Shown: positions 5,781 through 61,464, numbered from the stretch's first letter. The stretch: DNA of 64,000 nt from an uncultured virus (IMG/VR IMGVR_UViG_3300011906_000001) (IMGVR_UViG_3300011906_000001:124001-188000), one strand, 5' to 3'. The notes: generated by a model from the letters alone, not told the origin. Made by a program: numbers and translations.

Positions 5781-6965
5781 TTGGATATCATGGTAGAAGA
5801 GAATTGGAAACCCATTGAGGGATTTTCTAGATACCTAATTAGTAATCTTGGACGCATCAAAACAATTATAACAAACAATATTCTAAAAGCACACCCAAAC
5901 GCCAAAGGTTATTTGATTGTAAAAGCTAGAAACGATTCAGGCCTACTAAAAAATCTTAAACTACATAGATGTGTAGCCATGGCTTTTATTGGTGACCCCA
6001 CTGATGATAGAAATAAAGTCAATCACAAAGATGGGATTAAAACCAATAACCGATATGATAATCTTGAATGGGTTAACACGGCGGAAAATAATAAACACGC
6101 TTGGGATAACAATCTAATTGGATCACGAGTCCCCATCACTGTAACTGATTTATATACTGGCGAAAAATTAAGATTTAAGATGGCTTCGCACTGCGCGACA
6201 TATTTTAATATTTTACAAAAACGATTGAATCGACTTTGTCGCAATCATGAAATCGAACCATGGAAAGATCGTTATCTATTCAAAATAGAAGATGTAAAAC
6301 GTCGAAGAGGTACTCTTATACGTTGTATTGATTTAAGAACACAAGAGTTAATCATTGCCAACAGTTACGCCGATATGGAACAACGTATAAAGTTACCATT
6401 TAAAGCAATGATAAAAACATTAAGAAAAGATGGGTTATGTAATGGTTACTATTTTTGGATTGGTGATAATACAACAGACGCTTTGGCGAGAATTGCTAAA
6501 TTCACAAAATCTGAGATAGAAGAATCTATTTCGCGTTATTCTTGTAATGGAGCACCAGTAGCAAGAGAATATACAGTTTACAACTATAAGACGAGGGAAC
6601 GTAAAGTAATCAGAGGTTTCAAAGAAGTTGCGAAACATATTGGTATAAACCAATGGAAAATTCAAAACTTTTTAAGGATTAAAGCTATTCATCCAATTCA
6701 TGGATATTTTGTAACGGAGGGTGACATTACCGAATATCCTACATTTAGTGAGGATTTGATTGAAGCGAGTCTAAATGGCTTAATAATCAAAAATAAACCT
6801 GGGGTTAAATTCACCGATTTAACAACTGGAATAACTACTTGTTGGCCCACTTTGAGTAAAGGTTCAGTTGCCTTAAATACCACACTAATAAAAATAAAAG
6901 AGCGCATTAATAAACCGGAATTATATTTGGATTATAAAACTGAGCTTATTCCTTATTCGGTTTAA
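5781..6965 (+). mobile_element. Free-standing HNH homing endonuclease (NUMOD4 + HNH + repeated NUMOD1-like DNA-binding modules)
   Basis: WKPIEGFSRYLISNLGRIK (NUMOD4); LHRCVAMAF..VNHKDGIKTNNRYDNLEWVNTAENNKH (HNH). Visibly more AT-rich than its flanks. Confidence 0.92.
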
Positions 6966-7032: not shown

Positions 7033-7046
7033 AAAGCCTATATTAC
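7033..7046 (+). promoter_or_regulatory. Early promoter
   Basis: AAAGCCTATATTAC contains the exact phiKZ early core TATATTAC. Confidence 0.7.
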
Positions 7047-11656: not shown

Positions 11657-13135
11657 ATGCAGTCGCTATTAGATTCATACAGTCGCTTTATTGAAATCAG
11701 TCAATCCAATCCAGCGATGGCAGGCCTTGTAGGTGTATGGGTGGGAGCAATGATCACCTGGGCATTAAGGAGTGTTCCTCAAAGCCTGTTTAACATGGTG
11801 ATGAGTCAGATCACCTCAACCATCACCCTCACTAATGCGGGGACGGGGGGTAATGACCGACATTTTACAGCCTTTCAGGTCTGGGCAAGATCGCTTAAAG
11901 GCAGTGCCTTTACCAAACGGTATTTTATCAGCGCCCCTGATTACACCGGTAAAGCCAAGCCGGATGTAACTTCAGGCTTTGGGTTTCATTTCTTCATCTA
12001 CCGAGGGCGATTGTTTTGGTATCATAAAACCAAACTGGATTCCTCTGGCAGTGACATGGAGAAATATGAAATCACCGTCAGAGGGTTTACCAGAAGTCGT
12101 TCGTTAATCGATGAGATGATCGAAGACTTCAGGTACCGGGTGGATCGCGAAGGCACGACGGTTGTTGAATGGGAACGCTTTGGATGGGGGGATTCTTTCA
12201 ATATACCTAAGCGGGATATCAATACCGTGATTCTAAACTTAGAACTTAAGGCTAAAATCACAGAAACCATTCGCATGTTTATCAACAGTGAATCCTTTTA
12301 CAGAACACGCTCACTCCCCTATAAGCTGACCTGTATTTTAGAGGGTAAACCTGGGTGTGGTAAGTCCAGTCTCGTCAGGGCGATTGCAGGATGGTTAGGA
12401 CGGGATATCTATACCCTGAACCTGAATCTGGTTACAGATGAATCCTTAATGAAAGCCATTCGAGGGATTGAGAAGAATTCCATTTTATTGATTGAGGACT
12501 TTGATTCAACCAGTGCGGTAAATAAACGTACGGGGATTGAAACAAATCAAATCCCTGACGAAATCGTTGTTGATAAAGAGGCTTTACCACCTGTCGCTCA
12601 CACGCCTTATGGGGATTTTATTTTAAAACAAGACAATAATTCCACGTGGCTTGAGAATGTTAGTCGGACTTATGGTAATCGCCTCATGCCCGAGGGATAT
12701 TCTGACAACGTGATCAAAGCACTCATGCAAGACGAGACCCCGGACTCTAATCAATCGCCTCCTGTTAAAAGCAGCTTAAGCTTATCTGCATTTTTGAATG
12801 CCTTAGATGGGGTGGTGCCGCTGGATAACGTGATTGTCTTTATGACCACTAACGTTATTGATAACATCGATCCTGCTTTACTTCGTAAAGGGCGGGTTGA
12901 TCACATCTTTAATATTCCATACCTGGAAGATGAAGAGGTGATTACCTACATCGAGACGATGTGTCCAGGGTATAGTTATCCGATCGATCGACGTTTTAAA
13001 CCTATTGCAGGATGTGATCTTCAAGCACTCTATCTTGAGCACAAACATGATCCTGCATTGTTTATTGATTCGATTCCGTATGATCGGATTGATGAGAAAG
13101 AATTGCCTAAACTGCACATGTACCCAGTGGCTTAA
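11657..13135 (+). CDS. BCS1-like membrane-anchored AAA+ ATPase
   Basis: N-terminal TM helix, Walker A GKPGCGKS, Walker B LLIEDFD, LSAFLNALDGV, and SRH MTTN..IDPALLRKGRVD. Confidence 0.88.
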   Translation: MQSLLDSYSRFIEISQSNPAMAGLVGVWVGAMITWALRSVPQSLFNMVMSQITSTITLTNAGTGGNDRHFTAFQVWARSLKGSAFTKRYFISAPDYTGKAKPDVTSGFGFHFFIYRGRLFWYHKTKLDSSGSDMEKYEITVRGFTRSRSLIDEMIEDFRYRVDREGTTVVEWERFGWGDSFNIPKRDINTVILNLELKAKITETIRMFINSESFYRTRSLPYKLTCILEGKPGCGKSSLVRAIAGWLGRDIYTLNLNLVTDESLMKAIRGIEKNSILLIEDFDSTSAVNKRTGIETNQIPDEIVVDKEALPPVAHTPYGDFILKQDNNSTWLENVSRTYGNRLMPEGYSDNVIKALMQDETPDSNQSPPVKSSLSLSAFLNALDGVVPLDNVIVFMTTNVIDNIDPALLRKGRVDHIFNIPYLEDEEVITYIETMCPGYSYPIDRRFKPIAGCDLQALYLEHKHDPALFIDSIPYDRIDEKELPKLHMYPVA

Positions 13136-13560: not shown

Positions 13561-14475
13561 ATGAAGTGTCTTTACCATAAAAACTGCTTTGATGGCTTAG
13601 GTGCAGCGTTATTGGTTGATCTTAAATTCTCAGGCGTTGAGTTGATTGCTGTTCAATATGGCGATGAGCCTCCAGTAGTTGAATCACATGAGACAGTTTA
13701 CATTGTAGACTTCTCTTACGATCCACAGACGTTGGTGGATCTGGCGAATAAGGCTGGAGAGGTGATTGTGCTTGATCATCACCATACTGCGATCGAGAAA
13801 TGCCTCGCGTATTTTAAGACCCATGACAAACCCCATAACCTGACGCTTGTGTTTGATTATGATCGTTCAGGAGCCGGTTTAGTCTGGGATGTACTCTTTA
13901 GCACTGATGAGAAAAAACAGTGGATAGAACACACTTCATGCTGGAAGCCTTGTCAGGTCTCTGATCTAAGGCCTATCTGGATCGATCATGTGCAGAACAG
14001 GGACCTGTGGCGTTTTAACCATCCAAACCCTGAACGCTTCCCAGACCTTGGAGATACCTTGGCTTTTATGGAACGTTTGAGTTTTGAAGGGATGGATGTT
14101 AAGGCGTGGCGGGAGGCATTGAAAGCGGACTATATGCCCTTTGTTAATGAAGGGTATATTCTGTTTAATTACAAAAGGAACCTGGCTAAAAAGCACATTC
14201 CTGAAAAGCCTTCTTTATTTGAAGAAGGGGATTATAAAGGGGTGTGGTTAAACGTTCCTTACTATTTAGCCTCAGATGTAGGGAACCTTCTTAAAGACCA
14301 GTTTGATTTTATCGCCATGTACCATGATACAGGCCTTGAACGCACCGTCAGTCTAAGGTCTCGTCCAGGCGTTGATGTCAGTAAGTTTGCTAAACGCATG
14401 GGGGGTGGCGGCCACGTCAATGCGGCGGGTTTTAAAACCACTGTGTCCTGGACCCCTTTTGATCAAACGGAATAA
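13561..14475 (+). CDS. DHH/DHHA1 phosphoesterase
   Basis: YHKNCFDG, IVDFS, LDHH, VSLRS and GGGGHVNAAGF motifs. Confidence 0.92.
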   Translation: MKCLYHKNCFDGLGAALLVDLKFSGVELIAVQYGDEPPVVESHETVYIVDFSYDPQTLVDLANKAGEVIVLDHHHTAIEKCLAYFKTHDKPHNLTLVFDYDRSGAGLVWDVLFSTDEKKQWIEHTSCWKPCQVSDLRPIWIDHVQNRDLWRFNHPNPERFPDLGDTLAFMERLSFEGMDVKAWREALKADYMPFVNEGYILFNYKRNLAKKHIPEKPSLFEEGDYKGVWLNVPYYLASDVGNLLKDQFDFIAMYHDTGLERTVSLRSRPGVDVSKFAKRMGGGGHVNAAGFKTTVSWTPFDQTE

Positions 14476-14479
14476 ATCT

Positions 14480-14866
14480 ATGCTCAGTCAACTCATTGTG
14501 GTGGATTTTACCAAAGGGACCTTCCCTGTGGTGTATGATGAGTTGACCCGAGCCTATGATCGGGTGGTCTCGTTTTGTCACATTGAAACCCATGAAGCCT
14601 TTGAGCTTCATTTGTTTAACTATGACAAGAGTTACACGGCAAAGCCTGACATCCGGTTGGTGTTTATTTTAGACCATGAACCTGTAAAGGATGAGCCCCC
14701 CAATCCTTTAGTGAGTGTAATTGATAAAGCCTATAGAGACGCTTTATCAGTGAAGTTGTTTATGGTCACCCATTCAGAACAATATACACATTGTCAATAT
14801 CAGTGCGAGAATCCCCCTGAGAGCTATCCTGTTGATTTTAAGTTTCTAGAGGGAATAATCACTTAA
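14480..14866 (+). CDS. Hypothetical protein
   Basis: Likely start is the ATG at 14480, just after the DHH stop. Confidence 0.55.
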   Translation: MLSQLIVVDFTKGTFPVVYDELTRAYDRVVSFCHIETHEAFELHLFNYDKSYTAKPDIRLVFILDHEPVKDEPPNPLVSVIDKAYRDALSVKLFMVTHSEQYTHCQYQCENPPESYPVDFKFLEGIIT

Positions 14867-14877
14867 TGTGTATATTC

Positions 14878-15100
14878 TATGAAGAATTTCCGTTCTTTAA
14901 CAATTTAGCACGTAACGGCCACGTTCGAGTCGATGGCAACCTAAAGGGAATCTTCTGATTCTACTAAAAAGTATTAAAGCGTACACAGAAAAGCAGCCAT
15001 GCGTAGACTTACGCACATCCCAGATTAGGCTGGCTCAATGGGGTGCGCTTAACATACTTAACTGTTTAAATAAAGTTCCCTCCCTTAAATGGGAGGGCTT
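14878..15100 (+). ncRNA. Candidate structured ncRNA
   Basis: No ORF; nested stems, a T-loop hairpin, TATG at the 5' end and a hairpin terminator at the 3' end. Confidence 0.5.
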
Positions 15101-15129
15101 TATTCCGTCTCCTTAAAACCCAACTTAGG

Positions 15130-15426
15130 ATGATAACCATGGACACTCAAGATACCCCTGTAAACGTAGAGGACAATCAGATCGCCCCGGCCATGGCGGT
15201 GGTGACCGAAGCCCTTCGCACTGATCATGCGTATGCATGGGGGTGGCATTGCAATATTGCCATGTCGATGCGTGATGAAGGCGTTGATTGCATGGTCGCT
15301 CAACGCGGTGCTGCACGCTTCCTTCAGATCCTCACCACGAGCGAAGGGGTTCGTGGGATTGACACCACCACCTTCGATGAATACAAGGCTCTTGAGAATG
15401 CCTATAACGAGGATAAAGACCTGTGA
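15130..15426 (+). CDS. Hypothetical phage protein
   Basis: YAWGWHCNIAMSMRDEG motif; RBS present. Confidence 0.7.
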   Translation: MITMDTQDTPVNVEDNQIAPAMAVVTEALRTDHAYAWGWHCNIAMSMRDEGVDCMVAQRGAARFLQILTTSEGVRGIDTTTFDEYKALENAYNEDKDL

Positions 15427-15686
15427 AGTCATTCATTGAGAAAGTTGTCGAGGAACGCAACAAGGCCTTTGAAGCCTTGAGCGAAGATAGACGTTTCGAT
15501 GCCTTGATCACGCGTGAACAGGCTCAGGATGTGATTGATTCAAACATCGGGCAGTTATTGAACATCCTGTCTAATGGGAATTACACCCTCGTCGAATTAG
15601 TAGGCGAGGATGATGACGGTGAACCCATTGATGTGGAGATCACTCAGAATCTATCGGGTGAATTCTTCAACGCTATTAATAACTAA
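15423..15686 (+). CDS. Hypothetical protein (LxxxFxxIN family member)
   Basis: GTGA start/stop overlap with the upstream gene; ends QNLSGEFFNAINN. Confidence 0.65.
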   Translation: MKSFIEKVVEERNKAFEALSEDRRFDALITREQAQDVIDSNIGQLLNILSNGNYTLVELVGEDDDGEPIDVEITQNLSGEFFNAINN

Positions 15687-15731
15687 TTGTCATAATCCCC
15701 TCCCTTAACTGGGAGGGGGTTTATTTAAGGA

Positions 15732-61178: not shown

Positions 61179-61389
61179 ACAATACTTTTGTATGTATGTT
61201 ATGTGAAGAACAATTCGTTCAACTCAGACCTTGACCTTAGAAGTCAGGTCAGTTGCTATGCCGTTGTTTCTCCAAGGATTCTCTTAAAAAAGAGAAAATA
61301 CTGGTTTGGTGCATTCTATGTAAAAGCACCTTTTGACGATCATGACCCTCCCTCACAGGAGGCTTTAAGCTTATGATCCGAAAAAAAAT

Positions 61390-61403
61390 AAAACCTATAT
61401 TAC
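61390..61403 (+). promoter_or_regulatory. Early promoter of chimallin
   Basis: A-tract followed by AAAACCTATATTAC. Confidence 0.75.
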
Positions 61404-61464
61404 TCACCTGAATCTACAGCGCTGTAGAGTTCGCAACAACCCAACCCAATAGGAATATTCCAAC

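Follow-up and report, generated by a model that had tools for sequence, protein, structure and literature searches.

The DNA analysed here (the window, 64 kb) spanned bases 124001-188000 of a virus record 233,433 nt long (IMG/VR IMGVR_UViG_3300011906_000001), and the element in question was the spacer between an upstream gene (14477..14866, + strand) and a two-gene unit (15139..15686, + strand), for which a preliminary description had proposed an independently transcribed structured RNA, possibly a tRNA mimic or decoy. Positions are those of the window unless marked as genome positions. The proteins encoded in the window included a nuclear shell protein (phrog_4795, E 1.3e-165), a phiKZ-type tail sheath, a DNA polymerase and structural proteins; because a nuclear shell protein and phiKZ-type structural genes are encoded, the phage is, by its gene content, a nucleus-forming jumbo phage, i.e. 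a chimallivirus (Chimalliviridae, phiKZ-like). The upstream gene encoded a 129-aa homolog of phiKZ gp287.1 (phrog_16349, PHROG E 5.2e-16) and matched 55 phiKZ-like records in tblastn (~31% identity); its relatives among the matches listed (30 of the 55) were all Pseudomonas phages with genomes of ~267-283 kb, Phikzvirus OMKO1 included. An AAA ATPase gene (11657-13135) was found further upstream, its best match to cultured phages, across 128 records, having 37.6% identity. Both proteins were recovered by blastp against the OMKO1 orthologs (E 1.2e-13 for the upstream protein, E 7.5e-98 for the ATPase), and both genes were syntenic with phiKZ gp286 and gp287.1. The upstream gene was the end of the block shared with phiKZ, the genes 3' of the spacer were unrelated to those of phiKZ, and the spacer was thus a synteny boundary.

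The gap between the upstream stop codon and the first in-frame ATG (15130) measured 263 nt (14867-15129) and held no credible open reading frame (ORF). As had been claimed for about 220 nt of it, coding capacity was lacking: 3' of G14881, the + strand ORFs beginning with ATG, GTG or TTG encoded only 9, 8 and 14 aa and showed no Shine-Dalgarno (SD)-like motif, and no ORF of at least 10 aa with an SD sequence, the feature that delimits phiKZ-type short RNAs derived from 5' untranslated regions (5'UTRs), occurred downstream of 14881. The likeliest start of the next gene was ATG 15139, with AGGA 8 nt upstream. This was the first gene of the two-gene unit, encoding proteins of 95 aa (from ATG 15139) and 87 aa (from 15423) with no Pfam or PHROG family, and the unit was closed by the next terminator hairpin (15698..15717, + strand). 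The 95-aa protein (15139-15426) consisted of a ~60-aa domain (YAWGWHCN[IL]AM ... GAA[RL]F) which was also present inside much larger, varied proteins in 13 IMG/VR contigs, Rhodoferax phage P26218 and Ralstonia phage RP13. A stop-free frame of 66 codons without an ATG, GTG or TTG start (14916-15116, + strand), crossing the Domain 2 hairpin and the terminator described below, was judged to be due to chance.

The TATG reported at 14878 was present (14878-14881), embedded in TATTCTATG and contained in a 24-nt promoter-like block recognised by its motif (14865..14888, + strand), with the final base of TATG, G14881, as putative start; from this we infer that transcription begins at about G14881. The motif TAT[TC]CTATG existed in four copies genome-wide, all of them in intergenic gaps, and 7 of the 8 genome copies of the shorter AT[TC]CTATG were also located in gaps; gaps account for 10.1% of the genome. 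Three of the four TAT[TC]CTATG copies were placed 41-60 nt upstream of start codons in the right orientation, and the genes behind them were two paralogs coding for virion structural proteins (phrog_2935) and one gene coding for a GIY-YIG homing endonuclease of 396 aa (phrog_314). The 24-nt block was 22/24 identical to genome 210968-210991, 36 nt 5' of the endonuclease ORF. The late promoters of phiKZ have the core TATG, start transcription at its G and depend on sequence further downstream; in the case of P119L, DNA 3' of TATG, up to +51, was required for efficient transcription (PMC4666361). CTATG forms the 3' end of many late promoters mapped in phiKZ (PMC10914365 supplement).

The early-type motif of this phage (A-rich, then ACCTATATTAC) differed from the TATG block. 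An early-promoter-like motif (A-rich tract, then ACCTATAT[TC]AC), resembling the phiKZ early promoter core TATATTAC, recurred intergenically genome-wide, with examples in the window at 7039, 34248 and 61396. The two paralogous phrog_2935 genes (genome 26902-27495 and 30194-30786) each had GGTTATTCTATGTAT 59-60 nt upstream, and both had a 5'UTR hairpin (TCCTTTT...AAAAGGA) in which the SD sequence would be masked. In the region 5' of the nuclear shell gene (61179-61464), a ATTCTATG motif was followed 35 nt later by a degenerate CCCTCCC...GGAGG hairpin and then by the early-type promoter motif AAAACCTATATTAC; this region may be another very short promoter-to-terminator unit.

The CCCTCCC/GGGAGGG hairpin noticed beforehand was located at 15078-15097 and extended to 15069-15104 (+ strand), where AAUAAAG-UU-CCCUCCC, a loop, GGGAGGG-CUUUAUU and then CCGT formed a predicted phiKZ-type intrinsic terminator (pair probabilities 0.9-1.0). 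It was one of 39 genome copies of CCCTCCC-loop-GGGAGGG flanked by CATAAAG/CTTTATG. With crude gene calls, 32 of these 39 hairpins were at most 41 nt from the end of a convergent gene, and one more (15699) was added after correction of the gene call; the hairpin at 15069-15104 sat 212 nt past the stop codon. Of the other long stop-to-terminator gaps, two (genome 6264 and 90108) appeared by eye to contain small ORFs, and one followed the tRNA. This leaves 15069-15104 as practically the sole terminator with ~200 nt of ORF-free RNA in front of it. A conserved motif is present in more than 70% of phiKZ terminators (CCYCCCC-loop-GGGRRGG, then YTTATKYYGT; PMC10914365); the sequence found here, CCCTCCC-TTAAAT-GGGAGGG-CTTTATTCCGT, fitted this consensus in the 3' arm and the tail CTTTATTCCGT and departed from it at one position of the 5' arm and in the loop (6 nt, not 4). 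Only 34 nt, with no promoter-like motif, separated the terminator from ATG 15139; since there is no room for another promoter, it appears that the two downstream genes must depend on read-through and can be reached in no other way. A transcription attenuator with an antiterminator was considered and rejected: the best pairing (14945-14954 with 15073-15081, -9.7 kcal/mol) was equalled in 41% of 1000 shuffled leaders.

In phiKZ, the corresponding spacer between gp287.1 and gp288 has a mapped transcription start, P129 at 262671, directly after ...CTATTCTATG / ...CACTATTCTATG, and an intrinsic terminator, T118 at 262760, giving the transcription unit TU196 of 89 nt and 0 genes, while the read-through unit TU197 covers PHIKZ288 (PMC10914365). 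The TU196 spacer is among 17 phiKZ 5'UTR-derived non-coding RNA (ncRNA) candidates, which have no assigned function, and such 5'UTR-derived units are described as premature, possibly conditional termination products (PMC10914365). In the spacer analysed here, the terminator ended 224 nt past the putative start, as placed by the motif, and 34 nt before ATG 15139, the limit of the class being a terminator within the 5'UTR less than 250 nt from the start. We lean towards the view that this spacer gives rise to a promoter-proximal leader or short RNA of the phiKZ type, extended by read-through into the operon that follows. A TATG-type promoter for the phage RNA polymerase would be placed before, not behind, the operon terminator and transcription would start at about G14881; the leader RNA would fold into three small hairpins and the long hairpin Domain 2, and would then reach the standard intrinsic terminator at 15069-15104. 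The terminated product would be a non-coding leader RNA of ~220-225 nt and the read-through product the mRNA of the two small genes (15139-15686), and the same hairpin would also terminate the upstream operon. What the data show are the motifs and where they occur in the genome, the predicted folds and the equivalent arrangement in phiKZ; that the promoter fires, that the RNA has these ends and any regulatory role are inferred. The independent transcription proposed beforehand was plausible in view of the gap-confined TATG motif, the standard terminator and the syntenic phiKZ unit; within the structured RNA, Domain 2 folded robustly.

The sequence elements of the preliminary description were all found where it had placed them, but their statistical weight was different. 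The z-score of 14867-15110 (-3.52 for the + strand and -3.59 for the - strand) came mostly from the terminator hairpin. The pairing claimed for Domain 2 was well predicted (pair probabilities 0.8-1.0): this long irregular hairpin (14969..15059, + strand), with outer stems of 6 and 8 bp, an inner CAGCC/GGCUG and an apical UGCGUA-GACU-UACGCA, had a minimum free energy of -27.9 kcal/mol (z -2.92, 0 of 300 dinucleotide shuffles as good; z -2.07 for the - strand) and lay at the 3.1st percentile of the 91-nt windows of the genome, corrected for composition. The complementarity behind the closing helix of Domain 1 also existed (10 bp plus one bulge, -10.6 kcal/mol, matched by 1.0% of 1000 shuffles), but the helix had a probability of only 0.02-0.03 in the full-length ensemble, because two local hairpins win, and Domain 1 as a whole was no better than shuffles (z -0.28). 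The two local hairpins were a 5' hairpin of 7 bp with loop UUCC (14881..14898, + strand; pair probabilities 0.80-0.96), an alternative partner of the Domain 1 helix strand which forms first in stepwise folds, and a middle hairpin, GGAAUC-UUCU-GAUUCU (14947..14962, + strand; 0.71-0.96), which competes with the closing helix. The argument that G-U pairs favour the + strand was weak, as only 5 of the 54 pairs were G-U and the - strand folded as well or better (-49.3 vs. -45.4 kcal/mol for 14881-15066); the strand was identified by the orientation of the flanking genes and signals.

The T-loop-like hairpin GCCACG-UUCGAGU-CG(A)UGGC (14918..14937, + strand; pair probabilities 0.64-0.76) was present with its 6 bp and the loop UUCGAGU, but it was bulged and no better than shuffles (z -0.74). 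A T-arm-like hairpin offered to tRNA-binding enzymes or host anticodon nucleases would make the RNA a tRNA mimic or decoy, and the loop UUCGAGU closed by a G-C pair does fit the T-loop consensus (UUCRANY with G53-C61); moreover, GTTCGAGTC was also found in the tRNA-Leu of the phage itself. However, GTTCGAGTC is a 9-mer expected 1.8 times in the genome, and such hairpins amount to ~23-34 per genome by chance (34 TTCRANN-loop hairpins of at least 5 bp in the genome vs. 22.7 +/- 4.2 in shuffled genomes). The geometry was also unfit for a tRNA: the stem was formed by 2 bp, a bulge and 4 bp instead of a regular 5 bp, 8 nt lay between the hairpin and the supposed acceptor strand, only 26 nt were left for the D and anticodon arms, and the hairpin was not stacked on a terminal helix, given the low probability of the closing helix. 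The absence of a tRNA cloverleaf, already noted, was corroborated by ARAGORN (0 tRNAs in 14800-15200 in mitochondrial mode and with thresholds at default, 90% or 80%; noise calls at 70%, none of which used the T-loop hairpin on the + strand), and Rfam gave no match to tRNA, tmRNA or any other tRNA-like family at E <= 10 in 1.4-kb and 251-nt searches, the only sub-threshold matches being to the terminator hairpin. A T-loop-like hairpin alone is weak evidence for tRNA mimicry, and the mimic or decoy, which neither ARAGORN nor Rfam nor the hairpin geometry supported, is considered extremely improbable. The sole tRNA of the genome, Leu(UAA), lies far outside the window, in which ARAGORN found 0 tRNA genes. 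It is preceded by an early-type motif and TATG (genome 86650-87470), and ~140 nt of ORF-free DNA separate it from a standard terminator, with several hundred nt of ORF-free DNA upstream too.

The core of this hairpin appears to be better explained as an inverted 15-nt element shared with a homing-endonuclease locus than as a tRNA T-arm. When compared with its own genome by blastn, the spacer gave two neighbouring matches near 211 kb, where the 396-aa GIY-YIG endonuclease is encoded (genome 211017-212207), outside the window and 72 kb from the leader. Besides the promoter-like block, a near-palindromic 15-mer (14922..14936, + strand) matched at 15/15 on the minus strand, as the exact reverse complement of endonuclease codons 3-8 (genome 211025-211039). 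At both loci the 15-mer began 44 nt after the T of TATG, and the 33 nt between the shared blocks were identical at only 5 of 33 positions. No third copy of the 15-mer was found in the genome within 3 mismatches, and there was no endonuclease paralog in the genome and no other similarity between the two loci. An RNAduplex scan of all start regions against the whole leader returned unrealistically long looped duplexes, and exact-match counting was used instead. When 260 start regions were compared with 22.1 kb of gaps in this way, the 15-mer was the longest non-terminator match; about 0.5 matches of at least 15 nt are expected in this frame, so that its length is at chance level and the 15-mer alone proves nothing. 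Together with the promoter block at identical spacing, the probability of a chance occurrence was ~1e-4 or less by our own arithmetic. The retention of 22/24 and 15/15 positions around a spacer with 5/33 argues that both blocks have been kept by selection, and the 15-mer and the promoter block suggest either an antisense RNA or a shared DNA operator.

The sole full-length homolog of the endonuclease among seven matching phage records (two matches, both PhiPA3) was PhiPA3 gp078 (34.9% identity). The gp078 gene is flanked by a gene for an RNA polymerase beta subunit on one side and a virion gene on the other, and its 5'UTR contains a 12-nt inverted repeat. A second mobile nuclease of the genome, an HNH homing endonuclease (phrog_59, E 4.2e-40), is encoded in the window at 5790-6962.

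Several observations weigh against the phiKZ-type leader. P129 of phiKZ is typed as early and has no separate experimental validation entry (PMC10914365 supplement), and no similarity between the leader and the 89-nt phiKZ RNA was detected except for TATTCTATG and the terminator (27 in local alignment vs. 28.2 +/- 4.6 in shuffles). Once the terminator is left off, the leader (14881-15070) has only marginal structure (z -1.88; 13 of 300 shuffles folded equally well), the promoter motif, which depends on 4 to 8 copies, was defined with the site already in view, and no homolog of the spacer was found in the searches detailed below, the closest relatives of the upstream gene having ~31% identity. 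The spacer also opens with a possible coding sequence, a 30-aa ORF (14866-14958) whose ATG overlaps the upstream stop codon (TAATG) and has GAGG 13 nt upstream; it might be translated as a micro-protein by coupling to the upstream gene, in which case Domain 1 would be coding. Stop/start overlaps do occur elsewhere in the genome, e.g. at 15423-15426. Yet the SD spacing is long, no PHROG match was obtained at E <= 1, and the first eight codons are the promoter block, which is non-coding at the other locus (ATG TAT ATC CTA TGA), making a micro-protein very unlikely. The spacer might otherwise be passive and functionless, as an extended 3' UTR belonging to the upstream operon or as the remnant of a decayed mobile cassette, with promoter and terminator left after loss of a homing endonuclease: it marks the end of the phiKZ synteny, with unrelated genes downstream, the other site with its promoter block is a homing-endonuclease gene, neither Domain 1 nor the T hairpin is stabler than shuffles, and 3% of the genome windows match Domain 2. 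However, tblastn of the endonuclease against the spacer revealed no remnant (best E 0.10), the two blocks preserved beside a diverged spacer point to selection, no other promoter is available to the downstream genes, and phiKZ has an active unit at the same place (PMC10914365). A passive spacer is thus considered unlikely, and the leader is preferred.

The shared 15-mer might act at the level of RNA or of DNA. As a trans-acting antisense RNA, the leader would use nt +42 to +56, which comprise the loop and 3' stem strand of the T-loop-like hairpin, to bind nt +9 to +23 of the endonuclease ORF, and would block or modulate its translation; both RNAs would come from the same promoter type and so appear together. 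This is possible, though less likely than not, and several results agree with it: the Watson-Crick complementarity to codons 3-8 is complete (15/15); the duplex (-26.6 kcal/mol), with opening costs of 6.5 and 6.4 and a cofold gain of -15.7, leaves a net of about -14 to -16 kcal/mol; the 7-nt hairpin loop is available for nucleating the pairing; no non-terminator match was longer in the comparison of 260 start regions; and the diverged 33-nt spacer indicates that the blocks were selectively kept. The target falls in the first 11 residues of the protein, a part that shows no conservation with PhiPA3 gp078, and coding constraint therefore does not explain the retention of the 15-mer. On the other side, a match of this length alone is expected ~0.5 times in the all-against-all frame, pairing leaves the identical 44-nt offset and the near-palindrome unexplained, PhiPA3 has no parallel partner for its homolog, and no further complementarity between leader and endonuclease was found (13 reverse 8-mers, 8 of them from the 15-mer, vs. 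a background of 3.8 +/- 2.6). Offset and palindrome would be accounted for by a shared DNA module, in which the 24-nt promoter block and the 15-nt near-palindrome (+42 to +56) are a promoter and a downstream operator for a dimeric DNA-binding protein; the operator would work in either orientation and co-regulate the leader unit and the endonuclease, the RNA hairpin being a by-product. The 33-nt spacing is identical at both loci with unrelated spacer sequence, 5 of the 7 symmetric positions of the 15-mer are self-complementary (p ~0.013, own arithmetic), and I-TevI represses its own late promoter via an operator. The phiKZ promoter P119L, furthermore, needs downstream DNA up to +51 (PMC4666361). 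Nevertheless, only two copies exist, there is no candidate binding protein (the 95-aa and 87-aa proteins have no family), and an exact 15/15 identity that includes the central base and the imperfect half exceeds usual operator conservation; the DNA module is likewise considered less likely than not. In its most complete form, proposed only tentatively, the antisense explanation would be that the ~220-nt terminated leader is a trans-acting RNA restraining the selfish GIY-YIG endonuclease through the loop of its T-loop-like hairpin, made from the same promoter type, and that its probable origin was the inversion, in place, of a near-palindromic segment within a duplicated endonuclease 5' region.

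Relatives of the locus were searched for in several collections. The region 14300-15700 matched a single record in blastn against 50,697 phage records, and only over 62 nt inside the downstream gene. A search for related loci in IMG/VR gave none for the upstream protein, the DHH protein or the ATPase and 13 for the downstream protein (33-52% identity), in which nhmmer and blastn found nothing like the spacer. An exact 18-mer was present at 2 loci in IMG/VR and an exact 21-mer at 3 loci in metagenomes, all of them chance matches in G+C-rich coding DNA whose surroundings resembled the locus no further; a 24-mer of Domain 2 had 0 matches in IMG/VR and a 23-mer of the promoter 0 in prokaryote genomes. 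In a collection of 5.8 billion proteins, the upstream protein had no relative other than itself. A non-exhaustive literature search revealed no trans-acting RNA against a homing endonuclease and no report of tRNA-like ncRNAs in jumbo phages.

The arrangement recurs at the same genomic position although protein identity to phiKZ-like phages is only ~31-38% in the genes compared, which argues that it is the arrangement, and not the sequence, that is kept. In chimalliviruses, transcription takes place inside a protein shell, apart from ribosomes, and leaders with promoter-proximal terminators would therefore be unable to use classical ribosome-coupled attenuation. The endonuclease link gives one phiKZ-type leader a concrete, testable partner: if true for RNA, it would be a rare instance in which a phage curbs a mobile nuclease of its own through a trans-acting RNA, and if true at the DNA level, a promoter-plus-operator module for a phage polymerase.

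With tRNA T-arms and tRNA-like structures, the T-loop-like hairpin shares a seven-base loop, UUCGAGU, and the closing G-C pair; unlike them, it has a bulged stem and no adjoining acceptor helix, and belongs to no cloverleaf and no ARAGORN or Rfam match. The model for the operator reading is I-TevI, a GIY-YIG gene with a protein-binding site in its promoter region; unlike in I-TevI, the site described here is located 3' of the putative start site, has a second copy at an unrelated unit, and has no known binding protein. For the antisense reading, the closest parallel is CfrI, an antisense RNA of cyanophage S-PM2 which links psbA and a homing-endonuclease gene (Millard et al. 2010, via PMC12197685). 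Both are lytic-phage ncRNAs, the one described here predicted, antisense to a homing-endonuclease-associated transcript; CfrI is encoded in cis, opposite its target locus (PMC12197685), whereas the candidate partner in this genome is 72 kb away with 15 nt of complementarity.

The putative promoter shares with the phiKZ late promoters, used by the non-virion RNA polymerase (Yakunina et al. 2015, PMC4666361), a TATG core after C/T-rich bases; two of its four copies front virion genes, and the two closest copies share sequence 3' of +1, which agrees with the dependence on downstream DNA reported for phiKZ (PMC4666361). It differs from them in the extended 24-nt block, which is specific to two sites of this genome. 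The terminator has in common with phiKZ-type terminators (PMC10914365) the G+C-rich CCCTCCC/GGGAGGG stem followed by CTTTAT, T/G, pyrimidines and GT. The 39 copies of this genome are mostly placed right after stop codons and many are bidirectional. The copy at 15069-15104 differs in being 212 nt from the stop codon, 3' of a promoter-like motif, and in having the tail TATT instead of the commoner TATG.

The nearest known system is TU196 of phiKZ, from P129 to T118 (Putzeys et al. 2024, PMC10914365). TU196 is backed by ONT-cappable-seq reads (PMC10914365), whereas the unit described here is known from its sequence alone; the two differ in length (89 nt vs. ~222 nt) and in their unrelated downstream genes, and besides promoter core and terminator they share no sequence. 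Both are located at the same place, after the homolog of the upstream gene and two to three genes past the AAA ATPase gene; both have a start, putative in this genome, right after ...TATTCTATG, no ORF, and a CCCTCCC-type terminator just before the next gene, which is covered by a read-through form, here a predicted one (PMC10914365). The likeness to the phiKZ unit is one of position and architecture, not of sequence.

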